The notes under the pieces are model-generated. The model was not told the origin of the DNA. It worked only from the letters and a program-made list of their open reading frames with translations, and ran no database searches. A stretch of DNA of 63,940 nucleotides from an uncultured Planctomycetia bacterium (GTDB taxonomy: Bacteria > Planctomycetota > UBA8108): the NCBI GenBank assembly GCA_964392615.1, contig CAYMRB010000003.1, forward strand, positions 1 through 63,940, read 5' to 3'. The translations under genes were made by a program, and so were the position numbers. Shown in pieces: positions 2,522 through 62,596 of this stretch. The first letter of the stretch is position 1; each line of letters begins with the position of its first letter.

Positions 2522-4339
2522 CTACCCGACCTTGCGACGCTGATAGAGGAGGCTCTCGACGACGAGGACGACGAGCGCGAGTTGCAGCAAGATGGACGCG
2601 GGCCGCGGCCCGTGCTCGATCGGTCGGCTCGAGTCAACCGTCGCGGCGTTGTCGAGCAGCGTCTCCTCCGCCGCGAAGAGGCTGCTGCCGACGGCCCAGT
2701 GTCCGGACGCGTTGGACAGCTCCCAGAATCCTGTCCGCTCGAGCGGTCCGAACGCGTCGCCGTCGAGCTCGCCACTCAGGCCGCCGGGATCCCTCACGCG
2801 CGTGATCTCTCCGTCGCGAGCGCCCGGAACGCGCAGCGCTCTTCCCGTCGGATACGACGCGGCGAGACCCTCTTCGCGTCCGATGAGGTGTGTGACAGCG
2901 CCGTGCACCAGCACCGGAAACCACGCGCTGAGGAAGAACTCGGCCAGGCGGGGATCGGTGTTGAAGACGCACGCACCACGGCCCTCGCGGTGCGCGACCC
3001 ATACGAGAGGCACCCCGTCCTCGCTCTCGACGACGACGACGGCCCCCGGAGGTGCCTGGCACCGGCGAGCGCCGGCGAACGGCACGCCGAGAGCATCGCA
3101 GTACCGCACGACGGGGTGGTCGGCCGTGATGACGCGTGGAACGACCCTGTCGATCTCGTCGCCCAGATCTTCCCACCAGGGCGAATCACCTTCGGGAGCG
3201 AAGATTACCGCGAGCTCGGCGTCCGGATCATCGCCTGACGCGATGACCACGGCGGCGGTCGACGGCTCGCCAGCGTCCGGCGGGGCGTCGTCGGACGTCG
3301 GAGTCGTATCGATCAACGCGAAGCCGTCGGACGACTTTGAGAACGCCAGCACGGTGTGCTCGAAGAAGTACGGGTTGTCGGCGACGACGCGCACCGGAAT
3401 CGGTCGCGGCTCGTGCACCACGAGATGCGCGACGTCGTCGAACCCCAGCCGGTCGGCGTGCGCGGTCGTCACGCGAGCCAGCCACCTGCCGGTCTCGGCG
3501 CCTTCGACGTGGTAGACCTCCGGCGGGTTCACGCCGGGAACGACGCGCACGGGAATCACTCGCGCGATGCGGCCATCGTCGGCATGCGATAGCGTCACCT
3601 CCGCGTCGATCGCGTTCGGGAATGACGACGCGAGCCGGAAGTAGAAGCCGAACCGGCCGCCGCTTCCGGGGAGGCGCTCGAGATCGCATGACACGATGCC
3701 GACGTTGTCGAGCGGCTCGCCGATCTTGCGCAGCTCCACCGCGTCGGGAAGCACGCCTTGGTCGAAGCCGCCGTCGGAAAGGAGAAGGACCCGGTGCGCC
3801 TCCGAGCCCAGGCTGTCGCTCGACAGCTGCCGAAGCGCGGCGGGATCCAGCGGCAGCTGCGCCCCGTCGATGTCTTCGATGGCAGCGAGCAGATCGCGCG
3901 GATTGTCGGTCAGGTGCGAACGGTAGGACAGGGCCGAGTCGACGGTCGCGACGGCCGCGCGCTGGTGGCCATCCATCGCGCGCACGATATCCGCGGCCAC
4001 CTCCTTGGCCGCTTCGAGGCCCGGCGCGCCGGCGTCGCCCGCGCTCATGCTCGCGCTGCGGTCGATGACCAGAAGGAAGTCGCCGCTGTCGTCCTCGCCG
4101 AAGCGAGGGGCCGCGAGGGCCAGCACGACCGCGGCGAGTGCGGCGATCAAGAGCAGCAGGCTCAGGACGTCGCGCAAGCGGTGCAAGAGCCGGTTCGCGC
4201 GCTTCTCGCTCAGGATCGTCTCCCACAGGAAGAACGCGGTTGTCGGCCGGCGACGCGGACGTACCTTCAGGAAGTAGATCGCGACGAGGGGGACGGCGCT
4301 CAGAAACGCCCAGAGGAACGCGGGGCTCAGGAACGTCAT
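2522..4339 (-). CDS. BatA N-terminal domain / vWA-domain transmembrane protein
   Basis: ORF 2522..4561 trimmed to ATG 4337-4339 (MTFLSPAFLWAFLSAVPLVAIYFLKVRPRR, the aerotolerance-regulator BatA N-terminal signature). ATGA overlap with the DUF58 stop. vWA MIDAS motif DRSASM. Confidence 0.8.
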   Translation of the reverse strand: MTFLSPAFLWAFLSAVPLVAIYFLKVRPRRRPTTAFFLWETILSEKRANRLLHRLRDVLSLLLLIAALAAVVLALAAPRFGEDDSGDFLLVIDRSASMSAGDAGAPGLEAAKEVAADIVRAMDGHQRAAVATVDSALSYRSHLTDNPRDLLAAIEDIDGAQLPLDPAALRQLSSDSLGSEAHRVLLLSDGGFDQGVLPDAVELRKIGEPLDNVGIVSCDLERLPGSGGRFGFYFRLASSFPNAIDAEVTLSHADDGRIARVIPVRVVPGVNPPEVYHVEGAETGRWLARVTTAHADRLGFDDVAHLVVHEPRPIPVRVVADNPYFFEHTVLAFSKSSDGFALIDTTPTSDDAPPDAGEPSTAAVVIASGDDPDAELAVIFAPEGDSPWWEDLGDEIDRVVPRVITADHPVVRYCDALGVPFAGARRCQAPPGAVVVVESEDGVPLVWVAHREGRGACVFNTDPRLAEFFLSAWFPVLVHGAVTHLIGREEGLAASYPTGRALRVPGARDGEITRVRDPGGLSGELDGDAFGPLERTGFWELSNASGHWAVGSSLFAAEETLLDNAATVDSSRPIEHGPRPASILLQLALVVLVVESLLYQRRKVG

Positions 4340-5202
4340 GCGATCAGCCCGCCTCGCCGGACGATTTCTTCGATGGCGCGATCGAACGGCACGTCGGGTC
4401 GGGTGTTCGCCAGTCCGATGCCCCGGCGCGCGCAGCACGTCGCGAGGCTGTCGTTCCAGTCGCGTACGGCCGTCTCGAAGAGGCTGGCCTCGCGCGGCGA
4501 CACGGTCACTCGTCGCGTCTGGCCCGTCTCCACGCACTCGAGGTCGACGTCTCCCTTCCACGTACAGTGCGTGTCGTCGTCGTCCTGGACGCTCATGCAG
4601 AATACGTCGTGCTTGCTCCAGAGCAGGAAGCTCAATCCGTCTTCGAAACCTCCCGGGAAGAAGAAGTCCGAGATGACGATCACGACGCCGCGGCGGCGGT
4701 GCCGCGCCCGGAACTCGCGCGTGCAGGCCGTGAAGTCGCTGTCGCTGCCTGTGGTCGTCGCGTCTTCGAGAGCCTGCAAGAACTGCATGGCCTTGCCGCG
4801 TCCCCTGCGAGGCTCGAGCAGCGTGCGCAGCTGGTCCGACATGCTGTACAGGACGACCTCGTCATGCGTGTTGAGAGCGATGTATCCGAGTGCCGCCGCA
4901 AGCTGCTTCGCGTAGTCGAGCTTCCGCCCCATCGACTGACTGCAATCGAGGAAGAGGTAGATCGTCGCGTCCTCTTCGGTCTCGAACAGTTTGATGACGA
5001 GGCTCTCGAAGCGGGCCTTGACGCGCCAGTCGATCGCGCGGAGGTCGTCGCCGAGGGTGTACTCCGCGTAATCGGCGAACGTCACCCCGGATCCCTTCTT
5101 GGTACTCCTACGATCAGCCTGGAGGCTTCCACCGAGCACCTTGCGCGTCAGCAGGTAGAGCGACTCCAATCGGCGAATGAAGGCGGGATCGGTCAGCATC
5201 AC
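4336..5202 (-). CDS. DUF58 domain protein (MoxR partner)
   Basis: 288 aa with a DUF58-like core (FADYAEYTLGDDLRAIDWRVKAR, IYLFLDCSQSMG). It occupies the canonical position directly after the MoxR ATPase. Confidence 0.85.
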   Translation of the reverse strand: MMLTDPAFIRRLESLYLLTRKVLGGSLQADRRSTKKGSGVTFADYAEYTLGDDLRAIDWRVKARFESLVIKLFETEEDATIYLFLDCSQSMGRKLDYAKQLAAALGYIALNTHDEVVLYSMSDQLRTLLEPRRGRGKAMQFLQALEDATTTGSDSDFTACTREFRARHRRRGVVIVISDFFFPGGFEDGLSFLLWSKHDVFCMSVQDDDDTHCTWKGDVDLECVETGQTRRVTVSPREASLFETAVRDWNDSLATCCARRGIGLANTRPDVPFDRAIEEIVRRGGLIA

Positions 5203-5236
5203 GGGGCGCTCGTCAAGGGCCGTTGCATAGCGTCAC

Positions 5237-6241
5237 TCACGCGCTCCGCGTTCTCACGGCAGCGATGGCGCTTCGGATCAGCTCGTCGCGCTGCACTCCT
5301 GCGCTCTCGCCCTCGAAGCTCAGAATCAACCGGTGGCGCAACGCGGGAAGCGCCGCCGCGTCGATGTCGTCGCGTGCGACGTGATAGCGACCATCGAGAA
5401 GAGCCCGCACGCGCGCCGCAGCGAGGATCGCCTGTGCGCCGCGAGGCGACGCTCCGTGGCGGACGTACTTGGCGACCTCTGCGGATGCGTTGCGATCTTC
5501 GGGGTGCGTGCCGCGTACGACGGCGACGAGATAGTTCTCGATCGACTCTTCGATCGGTACCTTGCGGAAGACCCTGTTCATCGCGAGGATCTCGTCGCCC
5601 GTCGCTACGGCGCGGACGATCGGTGAAGTCGAGCCGCCGGTGCGCCGCAGAATCTCGACGTACTGACCATGGTCGGGGAGAGCCACATCGAGCTTGAAGA
5701 AGAAGCGGTCGAGCTGCGCTTCCGGCAGCGGGTACGTGCCGTCTTGCTCGATCGGGTTCTGCGTCGCCAGCACGAAGAACGGGCTCGGCAGCAGATGCGT
5801 CTTCCCGGTCACGGTCGCGGTCCGTTCCTGCATCGTCTCGAGCAGCGCGGACTGTGTCTTCGGCGTCGCGCGGTTGATCTCATCGGCGAGGAGGACGTTG
5901 CAGAACACCGGCCCCGGCTGAAACTCGAGCTCCCTCTCCGCGCCGCGCTCGACGAGGAAGTCGCTGCCGACGATGTCGGCCGGCAGGAGGTCCGGCGTGA
6001 ACTGGATCCTGCGGAAGCTCAGCTCGAGGGTGCGGCTCAACGTCGTCACGAGAGCCGTCTTGCCGACTCCCGGCACGCCCTCGAGCAGCACGTGGCCGCC
6101 GCAGATCACGGCGATCAAGACGTTTTCGACGATGGCTTCCTGACCGACGATGAAGCGTCCGATCTCGCTACGGATGCGCTGAAACGTGCTGATGAAATCC
6201 TCGACGTCGCGATCGACGCCGGCGGCCGCCTGCTGGGTCAT
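5237..6241 (-). CDS. MoxR-family AAA+ ATPase
   Basis: 334 aa with Walker A GVPGVGKT and Walker B LLADEINR, and a MoxR/AAA_3-type layout. 4-nt overlap with the upstream gene. Confidence 0.92.
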   Translation of the reverse strand: MTQQAAAGVDRDVEDFISTFQRIRSEIGRFIVGQEAIVENVLIAVICGGHVLLEGVPGVGKTALVTTLSRTLELSFRRIQFTPDLLPADIVGSDFLVERGAERELEFQPGPVFCNVLLADEINRATPKTQSALLETMQERTATVTGKTHLLPSPFFVLATQNPIEQDGTYPLPEAQLDRFFFKLDVALPDHGQYVEILRRTGGSTSPIVRAVATGDEILAMNRVFRKVPIEESIENYLVAVVRGTHPEDRNASAEVAKYVRHGASPRGAQAILAAARVRALLDGRYHVARDDIDAAALPALRHRLILSFEGESAGVQRDELIRSAIAAVRTRSA

Positions 6242-8112
6242 TCGTTCGGATTCCCCTCTTCGTCGCGGCTCTCGTCCGCTTCGTGGATGTTCTCGAAGTA
6301 CTCCCTGACGCCGTCGCGGACGTCGTCGGGAACGTCTTCACGCGCGACGAACGACTCGAACTGACGTCGGAAGTCGCGCGGTCGCGCGGTCGCCGCGGCG
6401 CTGCTCGTGCCGCTGCCGTCGTCGGCCGACTCGACCGTCGTGACCGAAGGCCCGTCTCCCTTGATGCCCTTGAGTGCCGTCGTCTGGCCGTTGTCGTCGG
6501 CGGGGGCGACGCCGTCGCGCTCGGTTCGCTCGCTCCCCTCGCCGGCCTGCACTCCGCCGCGCGCTCGAGACGCCGTGCGGGCGAGCTCTTCGGAAAGCGA
6601 GTTGCCGTCACGGCTGCCGCGACACAGGTAGCCAGAGCAGGAGGCGAGCTTGCGGCGCATGCGGGCGAGCCGCTGGCGCGTCGTCTTGCGCGCTGCGAGA
6701 CGCCGCAACGTGTCGCCCAGACGCGATAGGCGACGGTTGACGCCGCTGCACTTCGAGTCGCACTTGGCGAGCTGTTCCGCGTCGCACTGGCCGTCCTGCT
6801 TCTCGTCCTCGCGCAGCTTCTCGAGGAGGCGCTCGAGGTCCTCCGCCTCACGCTCGAGAGATTCGAGGAGGTCCGCGAGCTCGTCGGCAGCGTCTTCGTC
6901 GGTCGGTTCCGTCGCGGGCTTCTCCTGCCCGGCGGTGCCGTCCGCGCCCTCCTGGGCTCGCGACGAGCTCGAGCTTTCGGAGCCGGTCGCAGCGCCGCTC
7001 GAGCCGCTGCGCGACGTACGCGCCGGCTTCGCGTCATCGCCGGAGCGGGGCAGGCGTTCGGGATTCTCGCTGCCGCGCGTCGACGCATCGAGCGATGTCT
7101 CGTTCTTTCTGCGCAGCCCCTTCGCTTCCGCAGATCGTTCGCGGTGCGCGCGGGCCGCGAAGGCCATGCGTCGCGCCGCGGCGCGAAGCCGGGCGAGGTC
7201 TTTCTGCCGCGCGGTCAGCGGCTTCTTCGGATCCTGCTCGAGCTCCCCGAGCTGCTGCGCGGCCTTGCGATACTGCTTCTTCTGCAGCGTGACGCCGAGC
7301 TTGCGGGCGTCCGGGAGCTTCTCGAGCTCGCGGGCGACCGCGGCCAGGAGCCGTTCCTGCTTGGCCGTCTCGAGGCGCTCCGAACGTTCGCTCAGGCGCT
7401 TCTCGAACCGTGCGTACTGCCGGAGAGCCTCGTTGCGGTCTTCCGTGTTGTCGAGACTCTCGACCCACTCGCGCAGCTCCGAGGCGCGCAGGATTTCCTC
7501 CTCGTCGTCGTCCTTCGCTGCCTCGATCGCCTCGCGCTCGACCTCATCGGCGAGGAGCTCGTTGATCTCCTCGGTCCTTTCTTGCGTCGCGATCCGCTCC
7601 TGCCGCTCCTCCATGACGCGCGGCGAGTCACCTCGCAGCCCGAGCAGGGCGGACGCGAGCACGAGGACGAGCGCGACCGAGAAGAGCCGCAGCGCGGACT
7701 TGCCGCGAATGTCGCCGACGCGGTATCCCGCCACGTCGAACGCGGTACGCTGCGCCTGGAGCTCGTAGACGCCGTCGTTGTTTCCGGAGGCAGCGAACGA
7801 GCGCGTCGATCGAACGCCGTCCTTCAGGGCGAAGAAGTCATCGGCGAACAGCGCCGCGCGTTCCGCACCGACGCGTCGCAGGCTCCACGCGACGATCGCC
7901 GCGAGAGCGGTCGCTGCGAGGACCGTCGGATACCACACGACGGGCACGCGATGACCCGAGGCGACGTAGACGAGCGCGATGGCCAGCATCGCGGCGCTCC
8001 CGAGACCGAGGCTCCACGCGAGGGTCTGCCACCAGGCCCGACGGTTGAGCCTGCGTCGAACTCGGTCGACGAAGCGATCGACGCGGGCGCGGGATCGATC
8101 AGGTTCGTTCAT
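6238..8112 (-). CDS. Membrane-anchored coiled-coil/low-complexity protein (DUF4175-like MoxR-operon partner)
   Basis: ORF 6238..8307 trimmed to ATG 8110-8112 (MNEPDRSRARVDRF). Two TM helices (WWQTLAWSLGLGSAAMLAIALVYV, VVWYPTVLAATALAAIVAW). Long E/R/A-rich body. C-terminal tail DVPDDVRDGVREYFENI. The DUF4175 resemblance is from memory, not searched. Confidence 0.6.
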   Translation of the reverse strand: MNEPDRSRARVDRFVDRVRRRLNRRAWWQTLAWSLGLGSAAMLAIALVYVASGHRVPVVWYPTVLAATALAAIVAWSLRRVGAERAALFADDFFALKDGVRSTRSFAASGNNDGVYELQAQRTAFDVAGYRVGDIRGKSALRLFSVALVLVLASALLGLRGDSPRVMEERQERIATQERTEEINELLADEVEREAIEAAKDDDEEEILRASELREWVESLDNTEDRNEALRQYARFEKRLSERSERLETAKQERLLAAVARELEKLPDARKLGVTLQKKQYRKAAQQLGELEQDPKKPLTARQKDLARLRAAARRMAFAARAHRERSAEAKGLRRKNETSLDASTRGSENPERLPRSGDDAKPARTSRSGSSGAATGSESSSSSRAQEGADGTAGQEKPATEPTDEDAADELADLLESLEREAEDLERLLEKLREDEKQDGQCDAEQLAKCDSKCSGVNRRLSRLGDTLRRLAARKTTRQRLARMRRKLASCSGYLCRGSRDGNSLSEELARTASRARGGVQAGEGSERTERDGVAPADDNGQTTALKGIKGDGPSVTTVESADDGSGTSSAAATARPRDFRRQFESFVAREDVPDDVRDGVREYFENIHEADESRDEEGNPNE

Positions 8113-17352: not shown

Positions 17353-17826
17353 TCAGCAGCCCACCTCGCAACTCAGCGCGTCGATAGCTGGATCCGCGCC
17401 GCAACGTAACGGGCCCGGCGCGGCTGGCGGCGGGCCACCGAGGAACAGGTGGGTGAGGAGCCCGATGGCATCGGTCAAGAGGATCACGCCGTCGTCGTCG
17501 ACGTCCGCCGCGTCGAGACACGGAGGCTCCGGATTTCCGAGGAACAGGAAGCCGAGGATCCCCACGGCGTCGCTCACGTCGATCCGTCCGTCGTCGTTTG
17601 TCTCACCGCGCCGGAACGCCACGAGGTCAGCGTTGACGACGATTGTTCCATCGTACAGTTCGAGCGCGTTGGGCGAATCTGTCCGGAAGCGCTAGCCCGA
17701 CACGATGAATCGACGACACGGATGCGCTCCTCATCGAAGTCGAGAGAGAAGGCAAACCCGCGAACGTAGCCCGTCGATCGAATCGTCAGCGGAATCTCGG
17801 CGACGCCTCCAGGGTCACGTCGACCC
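17353..17826 (-). pseudogene. Relic of a cohesin-like + dockerin-like secreted protein (5'-truncated, frame-broken)
   Basis: The minus strand reads GGVAEIPLTIRSTGYVRGFAFSLDFDEERIRVVDSS (cohesin-like start). A frame break or in-frame TAG follows (17692-17694). It then reads LELYDGTIVVNADLVAFRRGETNDDGRIDVSD... to the stop at 17353. There is no N-terminus or signal peptide; the upstream sequence is element copy A. Confidence 0.6.
17356..17607 (-). other. Dockerin-like C-terminal module, copy P1 (in the relic)
   Basis: GETNDDGRIDVSDAVGILGFLFLGNPEPPCLDAADVDDDGVILLTDAIGLLTHLFLGGPPPAAPGPLRCGADPAIDALSCEVGC. It has two EF-hand-like DxDxDG loops and conserved Cys residues. Confidence 0.7.
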
Positions 17827-17829
17827 GCC

Positions 17830-17860
17830 CCGTGACATCGCGGCCGCGCTCGGGCAGGAT
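17830..17860 (+). promoter_or_regulatory. Conserved 31-nt element copy A (GTGACA-N17-CAGGAT; putative promoter/operator)
   Basis: CCGTGACATCGCGGCCGCGCTCGGGCAGGAT. GTGACA at 17832-17837, 17-nt spacer, CAGGAT at 17855-17860. It lies 155 nt upstream of the tatD ATG. Its presence is certain; its function is inferred. Confidence 0.5.
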
Positions 17861-18015
17861 CGGGAACAGCGGCGATGGGCGCCGGTGGCGCCTTCGGTAG
17901 GCGGCGACGTAGCGCCGCGACGTGAACTTCGTTCCAGGTTCCGTGAAGCGTCTTGCAGTAGAGCACTACCGCGCGGCGGTGGCACGGCCGACTATCGCTG
18001 AGGCCCCAGACGAAC

Positions 18016-18801
18016 ATGTTGATCGACATCGGCTGCAATCTGACGAACCGGCGTTTCCGCCATGACTGGTCCGAAGTGGTCGACCGCGCGGCCTTGGCCG
18101 GCGTGAGCCAGATCATCGTCACCGGCACGAGCGTCGCGGCCAGCAAGGCGGCAGCCGACCTGGCTGCAGAACTTCCCGACACCCTTCACGCGACGGCCGG
18201 TGTCCACCCGCATGACGCGAAGGCTTTCGACGATGAGACGCTCCCGGCGCTCAGGCGACTCGCGCGGCGGGAGGAGGTTGTTGCTATCGGGGAATGCGGC
18301 CTCGACCACAATCGCGACTTTTCCCCGCGACCCGACCAGGCTCGGTGCTTCGATGCGCAGCTCGAGCTGGCGAGCGCGCTGAGCATGCCGGTCTTTCTGC
18401 ACGAGCGAGACGCCCACGAGGCCTTCGTCGAGATCCTCGCGCCGCGCCTCGGTGCCCTGCCGGCGGCGGTCGTGCATTGCTTCACTGGCACGCTCGACGA
18501 GTTGCGGGCTTATCTGGACCTGGGTCTCTACATCGGGATCACGGGCTGGATCTGCGACGAACGGCGCGGTCTCGCGCTGAGAGAAGCCGTGCGCTTCATT
18601 CCGCTCGATCGAGTGCTCGCCGAGACCGACGCTCCCTTCCTGTCTCCCCGAGATCTGCGCCCCAAGCCGAAGGGCAACCGGAACGAGCCGGCGTTTCTAC
18701 CTCATATCGTGTCCGCGCTTGCCGAGTGCATGAAGATCGACGTCGACGAGCTGGCTCAGGCGACGGCCGAGAACAGCCGGCGTTGCTTCGGGATCCCATG
18801 A
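18016..18801 (+). CDS. tatD: TatD-family metal-dependent hydrolase/DNase
   Basis: 261 aa. The N-terminus MLIDIGCNLTNRRFRHDW...IIVTGTS...ATAGVHPHDAKAF is collinear with E. coli TatD (MFDIGVNLTSSQF...TAGVHPHD). The HxH-type metal ligands and an E/H/D pattern are present. Confidence 0.9.
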   Translation: MLIDIGCNLTNRRFRHDWSEVVDRAALAGVSQIIVTGTSVAASKAAADLAAELPDTLHATAGVHPHDAKAFDDETLPALRRLARREEVVAIGECGLDHNRDFSPRPDQARCFDAQLELASALSMPVFLHERDAHEAFVEILAPRLGALPAAVVHCFTGTLDELRAYLDLGLYIGITGWICDERRGLALREAVRFIPLDRVLAETDAPFLSPRDLRPKPKGNRNEPAFLPHIVSALAECMKIDVDELAQATAENSRRCFGIP

Positions 18802-18833
18802 GAGCTAGCGTCCTGTGCGGTGGGAGTCGCAGG

Positions 18834-18933
18834 GCCGCAACAGCCGCCTCAGCGCTGGCGATACGATTCGGCTCGCATCGCATCTATAGCATTCGACCTA
18901 CCCCGTGACATCGCGGCCGCGGTCGGGCAGGAT
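18834..18933 (+). repeat. 100-nt extended repeat containing element copy B
   Basis: A 57-nt block, GCCGCAACAGCCGCCTCAGCGCTGGCGATACGATTCGGCTCGCATCGCATCTATAGCA, is identical to 20346-20402. A 9-nt variable patch follows, then the core CCCCGTGACATCGCGGCCGCGGTCGGGCAGGAT (GTGACA 18905-18910, CAGGAT 18928-18933). The repeat starts 33 nt after the tatD stop and ends 78 nt before ATG 19012. Confidence 0.9.
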
Positions 18934-19011
18934 GAGAGCGTCGCACGGGCAGCGCTGCGCGGGCAGCTCGAGGGCGGCGAAGCTGGTTATGGTTTGCAAG
19001 GGCTCTTGTCC

Positions 19012-20310
19012 ATGTCCCACTCACTTCGAACGATTCCAGCGGCTCTTCTCTGTTGGTCGAGCCTGCTGCTCGTGGCCTCGGTTTCAGTCGCCCGGAGTCC
19101 GGAACCGACCAGCAGGGGCGATCGGCGCGATAAGGACGACGACTCGAAGAAGGGGGCGAAGGCGAAGGGCGGCACGGTCGAGCGACCGCTCTACCAGCAC
19201 GCGAACCTCGGACCGGAAGAGTGGGCGACATTGGCCGCGGTGGGGGATGGCGGTATCTGGATGTTCTCGACGACGCAGACGGCGTTGCGTCTTCGCGTCG
19301 ACGCGGGCGACGGAGGAGGTTTCTCGGATCCGAAAGCCGTTGTGGAGCAGCATGACCTCGACAAGTGGCAAGCGGAGAGCCTCACAGCGGTCGAGGCGCG
19401 GGCCGGCGACGACGGCACGTGCCACGTCATCCTCCAGATGATGCCGTTGGCCAGTACCAGTCGCACGTTCCGGTACGCCCCCTTTTCCCAAGGCGGCGAG
19501 AAGCAGCGTGACTGGGTCCAGCTGACCGAGGCCAGCGGCGTCATCCCGTACAGAATGCCGTCATTCGGCCCGCTTCCAACGGGCGACGTGTGGATCGAGT
19601 TGTACGGATATCACATGCGGGAACGAGCCGCGGTGTTCAGCGTGGGAGTGTTCGGAAAGAACGGACTCCGTTCGGTTGGCGGCGGGCCCTCTCTCGCAAG
19701 ACGCGAACGCCATTTCGTCGGTGTGGCTCCGACCAAGGCAAGAAGCCGTTTCCAGCTCCTGTACCATGACAATCTCGGCTTCTACTGGACGACGCTCACC
19801 GATACGAAGCCTGCCTCGGCGACCAAGCCTCGCAAGGGCATGTTTCTCCGGCGAGATACTCCGCTCTTCCACACGTCACGTCGAGGCGACGTCTATGTGC
19901 TGGGGTTCTACTCGACACGGCGCCTTCCCGGTCCCTCCAAGACGAAGCAGGAGCACTGGATCGGGCGCGGAAAGCCGGGGCGAGGTTTGCGCACGCTCAT
20001 CACCTTGCGTTCCGAAAACTGGCGGCCCTACCTGTGGCGATTCGTCGAGTCTCCCGACGGCGCCGTCTACCTGTTCGGCGTCGCCTCGGAGAAGCCGGTC
20101 AAGGGAGTGCGTCTTGCACAGCTTGTTCATTGGCGACTCGATGGCCGACGACCGGGCAAGGCGATTCGCGCGACCGTCGCACTGCCCACGAAGGAGGGGG
20201 AGAACTGCCTCGCACTCGCATTCCGAGGCGAGGACCGGCTGGTGGCTGCGTGGAGAGGGTACGGAGGCCTCATGACGTGCGAGCTGGACGTGAGTTCGTC
20301 GCAACGTTGA
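19012..20310 (+). CDS. Hypothetical secreted protein (432 aa)
   Basis: ORF 18820..20310 trimmed to ATG 19012 (MSHSLRTIPAALLCWSSLLLVASVSVARSPEP, a signal peptide). The longer ORF would read through element copy B. No family recognised. Confidence 0.6.
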   Translation: MSHSLRTIPAALLCWSSLLLVASVSVARSPEPTSRGDRRDKDDDSKKGAKAKGGTVERPLYQHANLGPEEWATLAAVGDGGIWMFSTTQTALRLRVDAGDGGGFSDPKAVVEQHDLDKWQAESLTAVEARAGDDGTCHVILQMMPLASTSRTFRYAPFSQGGEKQRDWVQLTEASGVIPYRMPSFGPLPTGDVWIELYGYHMRERAAVFSVGVFGKNGLRSVGGGPSLARRERHFVGVAPTKARSRFQLLYHDNLGFYWTTLTDTKPASATKPRKGMFLRRDTPLFHTSRRGDVYVLGFYSTRRLPGPSKTKQEHWIGRGKPGRGLRTLITLRSENWRPYLWRFVESPDGAVYLFGVASEKPVKGVRLAQLVHWRLDGRRPGKAIRATVALPTKEGENCLALAFRGEDRLVAAWRGYGGLMTCELDVSSSQR

Positions 20311-20345
20311 GAGAGCTGCTCCTCCCGGGCGTCGAGTGGCAAGCC

Positions 20346-20445
20346 GCCGCAACAGCCGCCTCAGCGCTGGCGATACGATTCGGCTCGCATCGCATCTATA
20401 GCACCGAACCCACCCCGTGACACCGCGGCCGCGGTCGGGCAGGAT
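20346..20445 (+). repeat. 100-nt extended repeat containing element copy C
   Basis: Same 57-nt block as 18834-18890, then a variable patch CCGAACCCA, then the core with GTGACA 20417-20422 (the next base is C instead of T) and CAGGAT 20440-20445. It starts 36 nt after the preceding stop and ends 60 nt before ATG 20506. Confidence 0.9.
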
Positions 20446-20505
20446 CGGGTGATTGCTCGCTCGTTCTCGAAGCACCGGGCGGATTCTCGTGGTTGAGGTC
20501 CCAGA

Positions 20506-21066
20506 ATGGACGATCCCTATCGTGCTCCGAAGAAGCGGTCCGGGAGAAGCCGCGCCGGCTCTGCCACCGGTATGCGTATGTCGGCTCCTGGCTTGCAGGC
20601 GGACAGCGTACCGGACCGGAACTACGCGACCGCCGTTCGACGGTACTTCTCAAGCTCTATCGACGTGCTTCTGGCCTTCGTGGTGGTCGGTATCCTCAGC
20701 GCCTGCGGTTTCCGCGAGGGCCGACTGGCGCTTGTTCCCCTCGGCTTCGTCGCGCTATACGCTCTCGTGTACGAGCCGGTTCTGACGAGCAAGCTCTGCA
20801 CGCTCGGCCAGCTGATCACCGGTATTCGAATTCGATACGACGAGCTGGAACTCGACCGGATCGGGATCGTCGACGCATACGTGCGCTACGCGGCGAAGTA
20901 CTTCCTTGGTGTCCTCTCCATACTGATCATCGCGTTCAATCCGAAGGGCAAGGCGATTCACGACCTGTTCGTCGGCTCCGTGGTCCTGCGGCGGAGGGGC
21001 GCATGGCGTTGGCTACCGACGCGGGCTCCCGATGGAGAACGCTCGGCCAGGGACAGCTCCTCGTGA
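20506..21066 (+). CDS. RDD-family membrane protein
   Basis: 186 aa with GAGG 7 nt upstream of the ATG. TM helices IDVLLAFVVVGILSACGF, LALVPLGFVALYALVY and YFLGVLSILIIAF. C-terminal HDLFVGSVVL motif typical of RDD proteins. Confidence 0.75.
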   Translation: MDDPYRAPKKRSGRSRAGSATGMRMSAPGLQADSVPDRNYATAVRRYFSSSIDVLLAFVVVGILSACGFREGRLALVPLGFVALYALVYEPVLTSKLCTLGQLITGIRIRYDELELDRIGIVDAYVRYAAKYFLGVLSILIIAFNPKGKAIHDLFVGSVVLRRRGAWRWLPTRAPDGERSARDSSS

Positions 21067-21117
21067 TGCCGAACGTGCAGCGAGTCGCGAGGTCCGTCGC
21101 TTTCTGCGATCGGCCAC

Positions 21118-21147
21118 CCGTGACATCGCGGCCGTGGCGGGCAGGAT
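21118..21147 (+). promoter_or_regulatory. Conserved element copy D (16-nt spacer variant)
   Basis: CCGTGACATCGCGGCCGTGGCGGGCAGGAT. GTGACA at 21120-21125, CAGGAT at 21142-21147. One base is missing from the spacer. It lies upstream of the beta-propeller gene. Confidence 0.5.
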
Positions 21148-21304
21148 TGGGGAGTGTGGCTCGAGGCCGCTTCACACACGCTGGTAGGACGGTCCAGCCC
21201 GCCCGCACCTTGCGGTTTGCGGGTCGCGGTGCGATTCGGTAGTCTGAGCGGACGTGGATTGCAGGCCCCAGTTCAGCCTTCCCTTCGCGATTGGAGAATT
21301 CAAA

Positions 21305-22582
21305 GTGCTCTGTAGTCGTGTGCAAGTCGCGCTCTGTCTCGGCCTTGTGTTGTCGTGTTCACTTGCCCTGGGCGAGGAGTGGACCCAGTTCCGCGGGTCC
21401 GACTACGGGCGGACGGCCGAGACGCAGGTCAACCCGGTGTGGGACGCGTCGACGGTCGCCTGGAAGACACCGCTGCCGGGCCGCGGCGCGTCGAGCCCCG
21501 TGTTGTTCGGTGATGTGGTCTACCTGACCGCTTACACCGGTTATGGCTCGACCCGCGGGAATCCCGGCAACGAGAGCGATCTCGAGCGTCACCTGTTCTG
21601 CATTTCGGTGGCCGACGGGAACGTCGTCTGGACGAAGGCCGTGCCGACCACGTCGCCAAAGAACCCGTACAACACCTGGGGCGTTGGCAGGCACGGCTTC
21701 GCCTCGAGTACGCCCGCCGTCGACAGGACCGGCATCTACGTCTTCTTCGGCGCTACCGGCGCGCTGGCGTTCAGCCACTCGGGCAAGGAGCTGTGGCGAA
21801 CCGACTGCGGCAAGGGAGTGCATGTGTTCGGGGCGAGCAACTCGCCCGTGCTCTACAAGGACACTGTGATCATCAATGCCAGTGTCGAGAGCGGCGATCT
21901 GATCGCGCTGAAGAAATCGGATGGCAGCGTCGTGTGGCGCCAGTCGGGGATCGACCAGTCGTGGAGCACGCCGGTGATCTACTCGGCGCTCGGCGGCAAG
22001 ACGGAGTTGGCCCTGTCGATGAAAGGCAAGATCCTGGCCTTCAACCCGGACTCGGGCGAGCCGATCTGGAACTGCGCGGGGATCGGCGACTACATCTGCC
22101 CGACTGTCACCGTGCAGGACGGAGTGCTCTACGCCATCGGCGGCCGATCGAACAAGACGATCGCGGTCCGCTCGGGCGGCAAGGGGGACGTCACCGAGTC
22201 GCACATCATCTGGCGGATCAGCAAGGGCTCGAACGTCTGCTCGCCCGTGTTCCATGACGGCCATCTCTACTGGAGCAAAGAGCAGAACGGCATTCTCTAC
22301 TGCGCCGATGCCAAGACGGGCGAGATCAAGTATGAGCAGCGACTGACTCCGGAGTCGGGGCTGATCTACGCCTCGCCCCTGCTGGCCAGCGGTCGGCTCT
22401 ACTTTTTGAGCCGCGAGAAGGGAATCTATGTGGTGGCGGCGAAGCCGCAGTTCGAGTTGCTCTCACACACCAGGATCGAAGGAGACGACTCGATCTTCAA
22501 CGCGTCGCCTGTTCCCCTACCCGGCGGAGCCGTGCTGCTTCGCAGCGATAAGAATCTCTACCGGATGAAGCCGGCCGGCTGA
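21305..22582 (+). CDS. PQQ-like/BamB-like beta-propeller repeat protein, secreted
   Basis: ORF 21254..22582. The preferred start is GTG 21305, with GGAG 8 nt upstream, giving signal peptide VLCSRVQVALCLGLVLSCSLALG. Repeated blades are visible (VVWTKAV, ELWRTDCG, VVWRQSG, PIWNCAG, IIWRISKG, HLYWSKE). Confidence 0.8.
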   Translation: MLCSRVQVALCLGLVLSCSLALGEEWTQFRGSDYGRTAETQVNPVWDASTVAWKTPLPGRGASSPVLFGDVVYLTAYTGYGSTRGNPGNESDLERHLFCISVADGNVVWTKAVPTTSPKNPYNTWGVGRHGFASSTPAVDRTGIYVFFGATGALAFSHSGKELWRTDCGKGVHVFGASNSPVLYKDTVIINASVESGDLIALKKSDGSVVWRQSGIDQSWSTPVIYSALGGKTELALSMKGKILAFNPDSGEPIWNCAGIGDYICPTVTVQDGVLYAIGGRSNKTIAVRSGGKGDVTESHIIWRISKGSNVCSPVFHDGHLYWSKEQNGILYCADAKTGEIKYEQRLTPESGLIYASPLLASGRLYFLSREKGIYVVAAKPQFELLSHTRIEGDDSIFNASPVPLPGGAVLLRSDKNLYRMKPAG

Positions 22583-23155: not shown

Positions 23156-23423
23156 GGATTCCTCAGTCTACAGCATCAGTGTTACTGCCTCGACCCGAAC
23201 GGCGATATACTCTTCCAAGGGCCGCCAGCCTGGAGTTTCTCCCATGATGCCGATCCACTCGATACTCGTCCTGGTTGCATTACCGTGCCTGCCAGCTGCG
23301 CCGGATCAGCTCGTTCTACAGACCTCAGCTGAAGGTGACGAGCGGCTTCCCGTCCCGGTTCCTCTCGCTCGGAAGGAAGCCGAGAAGCTCGTTCGTCAGC
23401 TTTTCAAGGACGAATACGCTAAG

Positions 23424-23446
23424 GCGTTGTCAGAAAATAAGTGAGC
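23424..23446. repeat. IS terminal inverted repeat (left)
   Basis: GCGTTGTCAGAAAATAAGTGAGC, the exact reverse complement of 24684-24706. Confidence 0.9.
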
Positions 23447-23454
23447 CGATCCGA

Positions 23455-24654
23455 CTACGGGCGAATCGTGTAGTTCCAGTCACCATGGAACGCGTTCGGT
23501 TTAATTTTGATCTCTGCCATTTGGTCGTCGGTGACCTTCACACCCTTTGGGTAATTCCGCTTGTCGAGTTCGCATCGAACACGAAGGCCCGCTTCAGTTT
23601 TCGTCGAAGCGATCAGGCTTACGATGGTGGCGAGACTCGCCAGAGGTTTCCCGCGCCAGTTGCTGGTGATGTACGAGAACAATCGGTGTTCGATCTTGTT
23701 CCACTTACTTGTTCCCGGCGGGAAGTGAGACACGGTGATCACAAGATTGATCTCGGTTGCGAGTCGCTGCAACTCCCACTTCCAGAGTCGAACTCGAGAG
23801 CCGTTGCTGCCGCCGCCGTCCGCGGTGATCAGCAGAGAGCGAGCCTTCGGGTAGCGACGAGCTCCCATCTTCTTCCACCACCTCTCGATCGTCCGGACCG
23901 CGAAGCTTGAGGTGTCGTGGTTGACTCCGACGCTCACCCAGCCCGCGTTCCGGGTCAGGTCGTAGACGCCGTACGGAATCGCCTTGCCTTGCTCCGGAAT
24001 CATGAAGTCGTGCACTCGTACGGGCTCTGCGTTTCCCTTGGGACGCCACGTTCTACCGGCGTTCTTGAAGTCTCCGACAAGTTCCTTCTTCTTCGTGTCG
24101 ACCGAAATCACGGGCCTTCGTCCGCGTTGGAAACGGTGGACCTCATCGTTGATGAAGCGAAACTGGGCATCACGATCCGGGTGGTTCGATCCTTCACGTG
24201 TTTTCCGGTTCGCTTGCAAGCTGTACCCGGCGAGGTAGAGAAGTTCCGCTACGAGCTGGTGACTAACCGAGTGTCCCATCGCCCTCAGCTCACCGGCGAG
24301 GTTGCGTACACTCTTCGACATCCAGCGAAGCGGCGACTGAGGGTCGCCCGACGCACTCGGCTCAACGAGTCCTTCAAGGTCGACGAGCAAGGTGGAATCT
24401 TTGTCGATCGCCCGCTTACGACCTGCGCCGTGACGACGAACACGATCGGAGTCTGCGATTTCTCCGGTGTCGAGTTCCTTCAATCCACGCTTGATGGTCG
24501 AGATCGAGATCCCCGTCGCCCGCGATACAGCCACGATGCCTCCGTGACCGAATGCCCTGGCCTCGGTGGCAGCCCATGCTCGCCGCGCTCGCTCGTTCAG
24601 TGCGGGCGCCAAGGCTTCGAACTTGGCCCTGATGATGCCGATATCATCGCCCAT
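23455..24654 (-). CDS. ISAzo13-family DDE transposase (Rhodopirellula-type)
   Basis: 399 aa, uninterrupted. Motifs read by eye: HPDRDAQFRFIN, ISVDTKKKELVGDFKNAGR, IPYGVYD, LLITADGGGSNGSRVRLWKWELQ, VSHFPPGTSKWNKIEHRLFS. Confidence 0.88.
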   Translation of the reverse strand: MGDDIGIIRAKFEALAPALNERARRAWAATEARAFGHGGIVAVSRATGISISTIKRGLKELDTGEIADSDRVRRHGAGRKRAIDKDSTLLVDLEGLVEPSASGDPQSPLRWMSKSVRNLAGELRAMGHSVSHQLVAELLYLAGYSLQANRKTREGSNHPDRDAQFRFINDEVHRFQRGRRPVISVDTKKKELVGDFKNAGRTWRPKGNAEPVRVHDFMIPEQGKAIPYGVYDLTRNAGWVSVGVNHDTSSFAVRTIERWWKKMGARRYPKARSLLITADGGGSNGSRVRLWKWELQRLATEINLVITVSHFPPGTSKWNKIEHRLFSYITSNWRGKPLASLATIVSLIASTKTEAGLRVRCELDKRNYPKGVKVTDDQMAEIKIKPNAFHGDWNYTIRP

Positions 24655-24683
24655 GCCTCCTTATCGGCATGTCACTCGAAACA

Positions 24684-24706
24684 GCTCACTTATTTTCTGA
24701 CAACGC
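24684..24706. repeat. IS terminal inverted repeat (right)
   Basis: GCTCACTTATTTTCTGACAACGC, the reverse complement of 23424-23446. Confidence 0.9.
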
Positions 24707-26235
24707 CTAAGAAGGCGGCGGAGGACCGCAGCAGCCTGGCGCAGAAATTGTACGATCTCGCTGCGGCGGAGGGGAATGACCCGGCTCGTTGCTACGTTGT
24801 TCTGCGGAATGCCCGGGACCTTGCGGCACAGGCCGGCGAGCCGGCCCTCGCCCTGAAGGCAGCTGACGGTATCGCCTCACGTTTTCGCGTCGACGGCCTG
24901 GCTTTGCGCCTGGAGACTCTTGGTCGCGTCCGGAGAGCGGTCAAGAAAGCCGAGGACGCAAGAGAGCTGACGGCGCTCTACCTCGATCTTGCCGACGCGG
25001 CAGTGGATGAAGATCGATTCGAGACAGCAAGCGAGGCGTTGGCTGCGGCGGCGACGGTGTCGCGGAAGGCGAGGGATCGGGCGTTAAGCGCTCACGTGAA
25101 AACGAGGAAAGATGAAGTCAAGACAATCCGTACGGAGTTCAAGCGGATTCTCCCGAGAGTTGCCGCGCTCGCTAACGACCCGGATGACCCCGAAGCGAAT
25201 CTCACCTTCGGCCGCTTTCTTTGCGTATTCAAGAGGAGCTGGAATCGTGGTTTACCCCTGTTGAGGAAGGGCGCTGATTCTGAGCTGAGATCGCTGGCCG
25301 ATCGGGATCTGGAACAGCCCGAGGACGCTGGGCAACAGATGGGACTTGGAGATGCGTGGTGGGAGCTGGCCCAGAAGAGCGACAAGGCGACGAGGCGAAG
25401 CTGGGAAGAGCGTGCAGCCTACTGGTATGAGCGAGTGCTGCCAACGCTTCAGGGGTTGGATCGACAGCGGATAGTGAAACGCCTGTCCGAGTTGACTCCG
25501 AGAGGCTGGCCCCACGTGTTTGAAGGCGTTCTCTTGGTGCTGACCTTCGACAGGAAGACGGTATTCAGTCGGTCCGGAGGCGTCTACGCGAGGGACCTAA
25601 GTGGGCTAGGAAACGACGGCCGCATCCTGGGGAATGCGAGAGCGACGACCGGAGCCGCCGGAGCTGCTGTCAGATTCGATGGAACGGACGATGCCATTCT
25701 GATAGAGGGATTTCGTGAGCACCTGATCAAGAACCTCACGTCTTTCAGCCTGTCAGTGTGGGTGAAATCCGGCCAGAAGTCGGAATCCGGTACCGTCTTT
25801 GACGTGGGCCATTTCGCTGGCACGAGTCTCTCGCTGGTCGAGGCGAACGGTGAGTGGGACTTCAGCATTCCGTTCTACCCGACCGGGCAAGCGGTATCGG
25901 CCGGAAGCGTCGCAACCGGCTGGCATCACTTGGCGTGCACGTGGAGAACCGAGGAGCAGAGGATCTATCTGGACGGCGTCTTGAAGGAGGCGAGAAAGCC
26001 GACTCGGATCGTCTTGAACTCCGAGAGCATCGATAACTACGCTGCACGGATAGGTGGCAGGGCGAAGACAGCCAAGAGGGCGCTACGGTATTACAAGGGC
26101 CTCATTGACGAGGTCGCGGTTTGGGGGCGCGCTCTCAGTCAGGCAGACGTGACGGCGTTGTACCTCCGTGGATTGAGTGGGCAGTCGCTGAAGTAGCAGA
26201 CTCGACCACAGTGGCGGCTTGATGTCGGCGGCTTC

Positions 26236-26266
26236 CCGTGACATCGCGGCCGCGGTCGGGCAGGAT
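26236..26266 (+). promoter_or_regulatory. Conserved element copy E
   Basis: CCGTGACATCGCGGCCGCGGTCGGGCAGGAT, an exact consensus copy. GTGACA at 26238-26243, CAGGAT at 26261-26266. It starts 39 nt after the LamG stop. A Tat-signal-like ORF fragment follows. Confidence 0.5.
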
Positions 26267-26998
26267 GCGGGGCAGCTCGAGAGTGACCTCGTGGCCGCGG
26301 TCCGATACCACAGAAACGAAGGGCTCGCCTCGGTGCAAGACGCCGCCGATTCCTCCGGAGGCCCATCGCCTTCCCGCAGGGCATTGCTCAAGGCAGGCCT
26401 CGGCGTCGCGGGGCTCGCGGCGGTGTCGGGGGGCAGCCGCCTGCTGCTCCGCAGCAATCGCTGGGAGGACAACGACAGCTATTGGGTCAGACACGCGGCA
26501 GAACGAACGGATCGCCCGGCGGAGCCCGGCACCTGTACCCGGTTCTCCAGAGGGTCCTGCGTCGCTTGCACCCCGAGTTCGGCGGCAGGCGCCGCGCGGC
26601 CGCGCTCACCGGGTGTGTCCTCGCCTTGGCGGGAGTCGCGCTGCACTTCTGGATCTGGCGCTTCGGCCATTTGCGCCAGACCTGGCCCCACCGCTCCCCC
26701 TACTTCGGAACCTCCCAGAACTCCGGGTCCCAGAACCGGAAGAGGACGTTGCCGCGGACACCTCCCACGATCTTCCGGACCGCACGAATGTCAAGTCAAC
26801 AACTCCAGCGATGACCACGCATAGTTCAACCAGGCTACTCCGGACCGACAACCGGGGAATCTCTCCAAGACCAGAGGAACACGAGGCCGGCGTCGATCTC
26901 GCCATTCAGGTAGATGGTCGAAACATCAACATGTTCCTGTTCGTACTGCTCGGTGCGTTGGGCCACGCGATATACCTCTGAGCGCGTCAGGACCTCGC

Positions 26999-27029
26999 GC
27001 GTGACATCGCGGTCGCGGTCGGGCAGGAG
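26999..27029 (+). promoter_or_regulatory. Conserved element copy F (degenerate -10, no downstream plus-strand gene)
   Basis: GCGTGACATCGCGGTCGCGGTCGGGCAGGAG. GTGACA at 27001-27006; CAGGAG at 27024-27029, where the final T is lost. It ends 12 nt before the GH92 stop codon, which is on the opposite strand. Confidence 0.4.
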
Positions 27030-27041
27030 CAATGACGTGGT

Positions 27042-36910: not shown

Positions 36911-37136
36911 TGCCGTTGCGACGAGTCGCGATCTCCTCGCGGCGCTCGTCCTCGACGACGGTACGTGTAGCTACGAGTTCACCGACAAGAGACGGAAGCC
37001 AACCGAACGCGGCATCCTCCTCTACGACCGCGAATCGCACCACCACAACGGTGTACGCATGGTTCTCTTCACGGACGGACGAAGCGATGTCACGGGGCGG
37101 TCTCGTCGGGATCGCCGGTTCGCCCCGCCTCGTTGA

Positions 37137-37405
37137 CGGCTCCACTCGAACCGAGTCTTCAAGACGACCATTCGGCCGCACTGGTTCGCGGACGGCGACC
37201 GGTTCTGGTACTGCAACGACCTGCGCGATGGCGTTCGCGAGTACATCGTTGTCGACGCGGTTCGGGGAGCGCGCGAGGCGGCGTTCCGGGTGCGGGCCAC
37301 AGCAGCGGCGGCTCGTATGGGCAGCGCCGCATGGAGGACTTCTTCGTCCGGCATCTGCAGGGAGTCGAGCCGCCTCAACGCAACGCGCCCGCGGCCGGGC
37401 ACTGA
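37137..37405 (+). pseudogene. Deletion remnant of an S9 (DPP-IV/prolyl oligopeptidase-like) peptidase gene
   Basis: Frame A (37137-~37285) reads [45 protein letters not shown], which is like S9 N-termini (rPnWi.dg..FWYr....g.eFvlVDa..G.r..aF). Frame B (~37330-37405) reads [15 protein letters not shown], which is like S9 C-termini. Roughly 600-700 aa between the two are missing. Confidence 0.4.
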
Positions 37406-37488
37406 GTGATCGAGACCGTCGGCAGGATGGCGGTGCTAACGCTCGACCGGCCTCGCGACGGATATCGCCTCGATGTTTGCGCTGGCCG

Positions 37489-43008: not shown

Positions 43009-43055
43009 GAGTCGGGATCTCGGTGGATGGGGCGCGTGGTGAGGCGCGCGACGCG

Positions 43056-48695: not shown

Positions 48696-48927
48696 GTTCG
48701 AAGGCCCCTGTACGATGGAAGAACGTGCCAGGCGAGGTTCGGGGCACCTATGAGCCACAATCTGCCGCTGGGGCAGTGAGACGAACCGCCACTCTGCGGC
48801 TCTATGTATCCCGTGAACGCCATCGATGTCAACTCCTGATCGAAGCGACGAGCGCCCGCGTCTTTCCGACTCCGCGCTGGCAGAGTGGGGACGCGTGGTC
48901 GCAACGCCGAGAACGCGACTGCCGACC

Positions 48928-48958
48928 CCGTGACATCGCGGCTGCGGTCGGGCAGCAT
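48928..48958 (+). promoter_or_regulatory. Conserved element copy G
   Basis: CCGTGACATCGCGGCTGCGGTCGGGCAGCAT. GTGACA at 48930-48935, CAGCAT at 48953-48958. It lies 40 nt upstream of GTG 48999. Confidence 0.5.
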
Positions 48959-48998
48959 AGGGGTGTGTAGAGCGGTGGGCACCGCAGGAGGCTTGACG

Positions 48999-49229: not shown

Positions 49230-49320
49230 CCGGCTCATCGTGCGCGACGAACCGCCGATCCGAATCATCAGATGACACATGCTTCCTGGCGTGCGCCTCT
49301 CGGGCGGGATCGTGACCGCC

Positions 49321-49351
49321 CTGTGACATCGCGGCCGCGATCGGGCAGGAT
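49321..49351 (+). promoter_or_regulatory. Conserved element copy H
   Basis: CTGTGACATCGCGGCCGCGATCGGGCAGGAT. GTGACA at 49323-49328, CAGGAT at 49346-49351. It lies 69 nt upstream of ATG 49421. Confidence 0.5.
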
Positions 49352-49420
49352 GCGAGTATCTCCTCTTCGGCAGGACAGCCAAGAGTGGAACGATGAGCGT
49401 ACTCGTTGAGGCTTCGGAGC

Positions 49421-62490: not shown

Positions 62491-62514
62491 AGTGACATCG
62501 CGGGCGCGGTCGGG
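62491..62514 (+). promoter_or_regulatory. Conserved element copy I (3' part diverged)
   Basis: AGTGACATCGCGGGCGCGGTCGGG followed by CTTGCG instead of CAGGAT. GTGACA at 62492-62497. It lies about 80 nt upstream of ATG 62597. Confidence 0.4.
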
Positions 62515-62596
62515 CTTGCGTCTTCGGTGGAGTCTGCTGACTGCGTGTGGCATCATCGCGAGTAGTCAGTTGCTTCCTCCCTAGAGCCGAGCGGCC

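Follow-up and report, generated by a model that had tools for sequence, protein, structure and literature searches.

A short promoter-like block repeated on one strand of DNA from an uncultured marine planctomycete

The repeat and its place among the genes

The window analysed here is a 63,940-nt stretch of contig CAYMRB010000003.1 from an uncultured marine planctomycete, and the subject of this report is a repeated non-coding block with promoter-like hexamers at its two edges. Nine plus-strand copies, labelled A to I, were spread over 45 kb in four groups, at 17.8–21.1, 26.2–27.0, 48.9–49.4 and 62.5 kb. A search with the 31-mer CCGTGACATCGCGGCCGCGGTCGGGCAGGAT, allowing up to three mismatches, returned seven sites in the window (17830, 18903, 20415, 26236, 26999, 48928 and 49321), all on the plus strand, against an expectation of 0 from shuffled sequence. 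The same seven sites were recovered with the bare GTGACA-N17-CAGGAT frame, for which 0.15 were expected. A profile built from the copies found nine window sites, all on the plus strand, with E-values from 6e-14 to 6e-06, and no match on the minus strand of the window was better than E 0.035. The nine same-strand copies of the sequence-only reading, an earlier note made from the letters alone, were confirmed by the 31-mer and profile searches. Their extent was revised: copy I occupies 62492–62515 and comprises the 5' 24 nt only, and the conserved block measures about 33 nt, not 31.

The gene map was drawn from third-position GC content, Pfam matches and gene calls on matching metagenome contigs. 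By this map the window is 88% coding, and all nine copies were located within the remaining 12% of non-coding DNA, for which the chance is about 5e-9 by simple arithmetic (0.12^9). Except for the ends of a single insertion sequence (IS), no other repeat family is common to the intergenic regions of the window. As had been proposed, the copies stand ahead of co-oriented starts: an open reading frame (ORF) on the same strand began 40–160 nt downstream of eight of the nine. Copies A, G and I are located in divergent intergenic regions. Where the upstream gene is co-directional, the repeat (including the extension of B and C) begins 29–52 nt past its stop codon. The copies, their fragments and the downstream genes are as follows.

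17823–17864, plus strand: copy A, a full module (profile E 1.8e-12), 155 nt before the tatD ATG at 18016; -35 GTGACA at 17832–17837 and -10 CAGGAT at 17855–17860, plus strand
18016–18801, plus strand: tatD (TatD_DNase), the gene after A
18834–18937, plus strand: copy B (core 18896–18937) with a 58-nt upstream extension; ATG 19012 is 78 nt on
19012–20310, plus strand: the gene after B, with a signal-peptide-like N-terminus and the 100-nt B/C direct repeat on both sides
20346–20449, plus strand: copy C (core 20408–20449) with the same 58-nt extension as B; ATG 20506 is 60 nt on
20506–21066, plus strand: RDD-family membrane protein, the gene after C
21114–21151, plus strand: copy D (profile E 3.3e-10), a full copy (21118–21147) with a 1-nt deletion, leaving a 16-nt spacer, and one C>T substitution; start 21305 is about 157 nt on
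21305–22582, plus strand: PQQ/BamB-like beta-propeller protein, the gene after D
26232–26269, plus strand: copy E, which does not differ from the consensus; a decayed ORF with a twin-arginine (Tat) signal comes next
26283–26302, plus strand: fragment E', 5' part only (GTGACCTCGTGGCCGCGGTC), 17 nt past E; profile match weak (E 0.53)
26992–27032, plus strand: copy F, -10 CAGGAG (T lost), without a downstream plus-strand gene; it abuts the stop, facing the 3' end, of a minus-strand GH92 gene
37084–37102, minus strand: 19-nt 5' fragment GACCGCCCCGTGACATCGC, the sole minus-strand piece, in a convergent intergenic or pseudogene region
48922–48962, plus strand: copy G, -10 CAGCAT; GTG 48999, 40 nt on, opens a 76-aa ORF with a hydrophobic stretch
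about 49298–49312, plus strand: fragment H', 3' part only (TCGGGCGGGATCG), 10 nt ahead of H
49315–49355, plus strand: copy H, with a perfect 14-bp palindrome ATCGCGGCCGCGAT; start 49406/49421 is 54–69 nt on
49406–49927, plus strand: 173-aa protein of unassigned function with a signal-peptide-like N-terminus, the gene after H
62492–62515, plus strand: copy I, the 5' 24 nt, ending past TCGGGC and lacking the -10 (profile E 6.4e-06); ATG 62597, of an FGE-sulfatase-domain protein, is 81 nt downstream

The gene map bore out the alternation of elements and genes described for copies A to D. The array reads A–tatD–B–orphan gene–C–RDD gene–D–propeller gene, with A–B, B–C and C–D spacings of 1073, 1512 and 703 nt. 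The genes downstream of the copies are mutually unrelated.

Copies B and C had been assigned a shared unit of 31 nt, which proved to be too short. They share about 100 nt at 94% identity; the 58 nt upstream of the block are identical, and weaker similarity extends from there back to the upstream stop codons. Other pairs of copies share only 24–42 nt. The B/C unit thus forms a direct repeat flanking the 19012–20310 gene. The 432-aa product of this gene had no Pfam or NCBIfam match, and a search of 5.8 billion proteins returned no homolog but itself, so the gene was of no use for finding relatives.

Past about 14 kb, cumulative GC skew climbs with little interruption through the rest of the window, and the plus strand is G-rich. 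The copy-bearing strand would be the leading strand, if the usual skew rule applies in this organism.

Anatomy of the block and its truncated copies

The nine window copies were aligned with three copies from a second genome (contig L002, described below). The conserved block begins with the -35-like GTGACA at its left edge and ends with the -10-like CAGGAT at its right edge, with 17 nt between them. GTGACA is invariant in all 12 copies (0/72 variable cells). CAGGAT has 2/60 variable cells, and its A2 and T6 are kept in nine of the ten full copies. The 17-nt spacer has 11/202 variable cells (5%), and the flanks, taken as the 10 columns before and the 6 after the block, are unrelated between copies with about 40% variable cells. 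Partial conservation was observed just beyond the hexamers, as two to four C before the -35 and as nGGG after the -10. The spacer measures 17 nt in all full copies except D, where it is 16, and the geometry given in the sequence-only reading therefore holds in the aligned copies. Its claim that the spacer is conserved as strongly as the hexamers is nearly correct (11/202 versus 2/132 variable cells, p = 0.085), and the loss of the final T in F, the copy without a downstream plus-strand gene, was also found as described.

The perfect 10-bp palindrome CGCGGCCGCG noted earlier in the spacer is present, and its full extent is greater: it is part of a 14-bp dyad, ATCGCGGCCGCGGT, with one asymmetric pair. 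Spacer substitutions fall mostly in the palindrome centre. One change in copy C (T>C) and one in copy H (G>A) each turn the dyad into a perfect palindrome. The 5-bp stem that the dyad could form showed no covariation beyond shuffles.

GTGACA matches TTGACA at 5/6 positions. A 5/6 match to the -35, a 16–18-nt spacer and a hexamer with A2 and T6 were found together in only about 0.1% of 33-mers, real or composition-matched, from the window; it is therefore unlikely that promoter hexamers form the block edges by chance. We know of no planctomycete promoter consensus, and a literature search for one returned nothing useful. Strohl in 1992 reportedly gave the streptomycete housekeeping promoter consensus as TTGACR-N17/18-TAGRRT. 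The block would match this high-GC consensus at 10/12 positions. Compared with high-GC housekeeping-sigma promoters of this type, the block has the 5/6 -35, the 17-nt spacer, the A2 and T6 of the -10 and the G-rich stretch after it. It differs in the first base of the -10, which is C and not T, and in a conserved spacer sequence, unlike ordinary promoters.

Six partial copies were found: E', H', I, the 37084–37102 fragment, and L002 1895 and 1785. The three 5' fragments I, E' and L002 1895 end within GGTCGGGC, and both 3' fragments, H' and L002 1785, begin there. The fragment at 37084–37102 breaks elsewhere.

Occurrence in other genomes and the surrounding genes

A degenerate pattern of 20–22 bases was scanned against one genome per species for 185,579 species. 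It returned four loci, of which only one was real. This is L002, a 7.4-kb contig of an uncultured Planctomycetia metagenome-assembled genome, which carries two full copies and a truncated one in a 480-nt interval, with the same strand for all three. A TTGACA-N18-CAGGGG site lies about 100 nt before the first L002 copy and shares only the 3' part of the block. The same pattern gave 16 loci in metagenome contigs and one in viral contigs, all of them chance matches, and plasmid and phage collections held no match to the 111-nt B unit.

A translated search was consistent with this distribution. The frame -1 translation of the block was compared with 5.8 billion predicted proteins and matched only the window's own 65-aa ORF at copy F. 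One of the nine window copies is covered by a frame -1 ORF, so the search speaks, though weakly, against hundreds of copies in sequenced genomes and for a low copy number. With the RDIAAAVGQD frame, 1.84 billion representatives yielded the window's own ORF and one false positive among the matches listed at E ≤0.001, a threshold at which bare consensus matches would be missed.

The same population was recovered from several marine metagenomes, as contigs 99.9–100% identical to the window; samples containing it are JGI 3300009008, 3300009128, 3300007510/11 and 3300013118 and ENA ERZ23498639/668. Six metagenome contigs of this population showed no structural or strain variation. When window proteins were looked up, every match came from this population, and an exact-sequence look-up of the IS transposase gave only its own locus.

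The tatD neighbourhood was compared with that of the relatives L025, L027, L039 and L040. The closest tatD orthologs are 73–77% identical, and two further ones, on 2.5- and 11-kb contigs, are 62–64% identical. The block was absent upstream of tatD in every sampled relative (62–77% TatD identity). The search of related genomes that the sequence-only reading had suggested thus gave one true relative among the 185,579 species, and the block was missing at the tatD orthologs sampled. In most relatives, from 77% down to 62% identity, tatD stands head-to-head with a gene for a 114–122-aa membrane protein, about 25–60 nt apart. The window lacks this conserved divergent neighbour and has instead a 390-nt intergenic region (17623–18015), containing copy A, which separates tatD from a dockerin-like gene. 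Because the relatives keep a tatD neighbour that is missing in the window, copy A lies at a break in conserved gene order. Origin of the block from an ancestral tatD promoter was also considered and rejected, as local alignment to the relatives' tatD upstream regions was no better than shuffles (p ~0.35).

A second non-coding element of about 40 nt, CGCATAGTTCAACCAGRCTACTCCGGACYRACAACCRGGG, is found in both genomes at 90% identity, at window 26817–26858 and L002 1812–1852. The window has a single instance, 140 nt ahead of F, and the L002 instance is 43 nt ahead of a copy; in both, element and copy have the same orientation. It holds a CATAGT hexamer like that just upstream of tatD in L025 and L027.

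Beside the L002 cluster, at 3095–7232 on the minus strand, is a transposon module that encodes a DDE transposase (HTH_32 and rve), an AAA_22 ATPase, an AAA_25 protein and a DUF6431 protein. The interval separating this module from the cluster contains rearranged FGE-sulfatase gene fragments related to window 62597–63940. No integrase or recombinase domain was found in the scanned ORFs of the window, and no integrase domain in those of L002.

Genes typical of planctomycetes are present in the window. They include giant FG-GAP/dockerin-like proteins, a MoxR-DUF58-VWA operon, GH92 and FGE-sulfatase domains, an HZS-alpha domain protein, a fusion of an extracytoplasmic function (ECF) sigma factor with HEAT repeats, and an ISAzo13-type "Rhodopirellula transposase". 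The ISAzo13-family IS occupies 23419–24711, between D and E in a low-GC stretch. Its terminal inverted repeats are 36 nt long and 89% complementary, its DDE transposase (399 aa) is encoded on the minus strand, and a Laminin_G_3 gene of the plus strand appears to have been interrupted by it.

Two minus-strand genes at 37489–48695 encode giant FG-GAP/VCBS-type proteins of about 1870 aa each. They contain many internal DNA repeats, with periods of 57, 96 and 147 nt, and cysteine-rich DxDGNGxPD modules. A C-terminal dockerin-like double repeat is common to these giant proteins and the ORFs 17353–17691 and 61334–62269. The minus-strand gene at 58510–61053 encodes 847 aa, an ECF-type sigma factor (Sigma70_r2, r4) joined to an extended C-terminal part with HEAT repeats; no GTGACA copy precedes this gene. 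Two regions have the look of decayed genes: 26300–26815, where a twin-arginine signal (SRRALLKAGLGVAGLAAV) is followed by frame breaks, and 36911–37488, an alpha/beta-hydrolase fragment (GHSSGG) that contains the minus-strand repeat fragment.

Interpretation of the block

Judged from its sequence, the block may well be a lineage-restricted, locally propagated housekeeping promoter module of the sigma-70 / sigma-A type, a reading in which we place about even confidence. Its parts would be the -35-like GTGACA, the 17-bp spacer with the dyad ATCGCGGCCGCGGT, the -10-like CAGGAT and then the G-rich stretch. We infer that RNA polymerase would start about 6–9 nt past the -10, near 17867, 18940, 20452, 21154, 26273, 48965 and 49358, and would transcribe the next plus-strand gene. 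The copies would share a common descent: a short DNA segment with its end just past the -10 would have been copied repeatedly to new intergenic sites. Such copying would be confined to this 45-kb stretch and lineage, with B and C as the latest pair. Most simply read, the dyad between the hexamers would be the site of a dimeric repressor that blocks polymerase at all copies together. The 14-bp dyad does lie within the spacer, as expected of an operator overlapping a promoter, and a cognate regulator was not found in the window. The dyad may be an operator, or it may be too young to have diverged; the presence of the same block in L002 hints at constraint.

A promoter module is the simplest reading because it covers the block edges, the intergenic placement pointing at genes, and the exceptions F and I. 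Copy F, which has no gene to serve, has lost the T of its -10, and copy I, without a -10, fits a truncated remnant.

Several observations weigh against a propagated promoter. Only 8/12 positions agree with the E. coli consensus (3/6 in the -10), and a generic sigma-70 scan of the window did not call the block. Since copy A is 155 nt away, tatD may be served by a nearer promoter of its own. The scanned window ORFs included no transcription factor gene, and the pairing of the dyad is without statistically supported covariation. About ten minus-strand transcription units of the window lack any copy, and a promoter gives no reason for placement on one strand only. Truncated copies that adjoin full ones (E', H' and L002 1895/1785) look more like products of recombination than of promoter evolution, as does the direct repeat bracketing a gene without homologs; a promoter leaves these features, like the strand bias, unexplained.

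Among known kinds the finding is best placed with the putative mobile promoters (PMPs) of Matus-Garcia, Nijveen and van Passel (2012). As summarised in PMC3575422, PMPs are closely similar upstream sequences of non-paralogous genes in one genome, not tied to a known mobile element, and an identity of 80% or more across 50 nt or more is required. The B/C pair (about 100 nt, 94%) reaches this identity and length, and its downstream genes are unrelated. On the same definition, most copies here differ in sharing only 33–42 nt, under the length cut-off. They also differ from PMPs as described there in being locally clustered and on one strand, in having a dyad in the spacer and in having truncated copies that abut full ones.

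The strand bias, the truncated copies and the bracketed gene keep a recombination reading alive, because the promoter does not explain them. According to this reading, which we consider unlikely, the block is a recombination or cassette-junction site: a site-specific or other sequence-directed recombination system would insert or exchange genes and build the co-oriented array, and the promoter shape would give expression. It would account for same-strand clusters in both genomes (nine copies in 45 kb here, and 3–4 in about 600 nt of L002), and for a right edge that is sharp in all copies beside a variable left edge. Breakpoints of 5' and 3' fragments that coincide within GGTCGGGC are in line with it, as are the direct repeats of about 100 nt around a gene for which 5.8 billion proteins contained no homolog and the intervals holding single genes, pseudogenes and an IS. 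In addition, tatD is split from its conserved neighbour exactly at copy A, and the transposon module adjoins the L002 cluster. However, the scanned window ORFs hold no integrase or recombinase domain, the copies form four groups and not one contiguous array, and the six metagenome contigs of the population are without strain variation. Only six partial copies exist, one of which (37084–37102) breaks elsewhere.

The closest known comparison for such junctions is with integron attC sites and clusters of attC sites lacking integrases (CALIN). These likewise consist of co-oriented short repeats between single, unrelated and often orphan genes, starting shortly past the upstream stop, and GTCGGGC of the block matches GTTRRRY at 6/7. 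In contrast, the block has no R''/L'' inverse core (the RYYYAAC...GTTRRRY partner), no inverted arms beyond the 14-bp dyad and no imperfect hairpin of 55–140 nt. Single-strand folds of the block and its flanks on both strands were no better than shuffled sequence (z-scores −1.6 to +1.8), so an attC-like hairpin is not supported. Integrons further differ in that no integrase was found among the scanned ORFs of the window and L002, the gene starts 40–160 nt after the block, and the block has promoter-like hexamers of its own. A more specific form, somewhat less probable again, is that the block marks junctions of a so far undescribed Planctomycetes cassette system, with a short, hairpin-less, promoter-carrying site at which single genes are inserted one way. 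Each acquired gene would then come with, or land behind, a ready co-regulated promoter, an integron-like outcome from a different site.

The block could also be a neutral or selfish short repeat without host function, left at rearrangement junctions and resembling a promoter by chance; this we rate as improbable, on a level with recombination junctions in general. A lineage-restricted distribution, the existence of truncated copies, the position at a synteny break and the low copy number suggested by the translated search are in its favour. Nevertheless, promoter-like geometry would arise by chance in only about 1/1000 blocks, the hexamers are the least variable columns, and the nine copies all lie outside coding DNA and are directed towards a gene downstream. 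Tested as a miniature inverted-repeat transposable element (MITE) or repetitive extragenic palindrome (REP), the block showed no terminal inverted repeats, indeed none beyond the 14-bp dyad, lay on one strand and was rare in public data, without the high copy number of such elements. Correia elements, ERIC and REPIN are miniature repeats that carry promoters (cited in PMC3575422). Like them, the block is a short intergenic repeat able to supply promoters to neighbours. They have terminal inverted repeats or long hairpins and occur on both strands in tens to hundreds of copies, none of which was seen for the block.

It is more doubtful still that the block acts as a transcribed leader element, that is, a pause, antitermination or processing signal or a small hairpin in transcripts from further upstream. 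Read-through across the copies is likely, because they lie close to upstream stops (29–52 nt) and no terminator-like site was found on the plus strand between the array genes. Copies are always oriented like the gene that follows. A 5-bp stem can form from the dyad, with 96.6% of cells paired, and two variants change a U-G pair to C-G or U-A. However, neither the pairing statistics nor the folding energies exceeded those of shuffled sequence, and Rfam covariance models gave 0 matches at the gathering score across the whole window. A tRNA/tmRNA search of the window also found none. Moreover, a leader leaves the promoter-like hexamers at the block edges unexplained, and A, G and I, in divergent regions, would need a further, unseen promoter. 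The ops/JUMPstart element, likewise a conserved block (about 39 nt), precedes unrelated operons and always points in the direction of transcription; it is found in the leader transcripts of long operons for polysaccharides or pili and acts via a NusG paralog. It has no sequence resemblance to the present block.

An ancient dispersed regulon appears equally doubtful. Each copy would have independently kept an operator and promoter under one transcription factor that serves envelope-related genes genome-wide. The dyad within a conserved spacer and the same block in a second genome contig fit this view. So do the downstream products, mostly secreted- or membrane-like by N-terminus or Pfam family (the 19012 product, the RDD protein, the Tat-signal remnant, the 76-aa hydrophobic ORF and the 49406 product). 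Against it, the block is missing at the orthologous tatD loci of all relatives sampled, its copies are local and confined to one strand, a binding site would need far less than 33 nt of near-identity, the B/C pair has 100 nt in common, and no regulator was found nearby. The sequence-only reading had offered a regulon and a recently propagated module side by side. Recent propagation is favoured over an old regulon because the flanks are unrelated, B and C form a close pair, the element is absent at orthologs and the copies are locally clustered; the propagated module thus fits better, and the regulon suffers from the absence at the relatives' tatD.

Other candidates were judged by eye and rejected: a sigma-54 promoter (GG-N10-GC present, but about 7/12 of the consensus), an ECF promoter (a CGTC-type -10 is missing at the expected distance, and the ECF sigma gene has no copy ahead of it), and an identity as parS, Ter, iteron or transposon end.

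If the propagated module is an active promoter, it would be a clean natural example of promoter reuse, in which one short sequence places seven or more unrelated genes under a common signal. These genes mostly have poorly conserved, envelope-type products. Promoters and regulation are almost unstudied in this phylum, and the 14-bp dyad offers a handle for finding the regulator. Should the copies instead be recombination junctions, the locus would show how planctomycetes, known for scrambled gene order, gain and express single genes, and the interest would be far higher if the cassette reading were true. Both readings are testable on existing marine metagenomes and metatranscriptomes.

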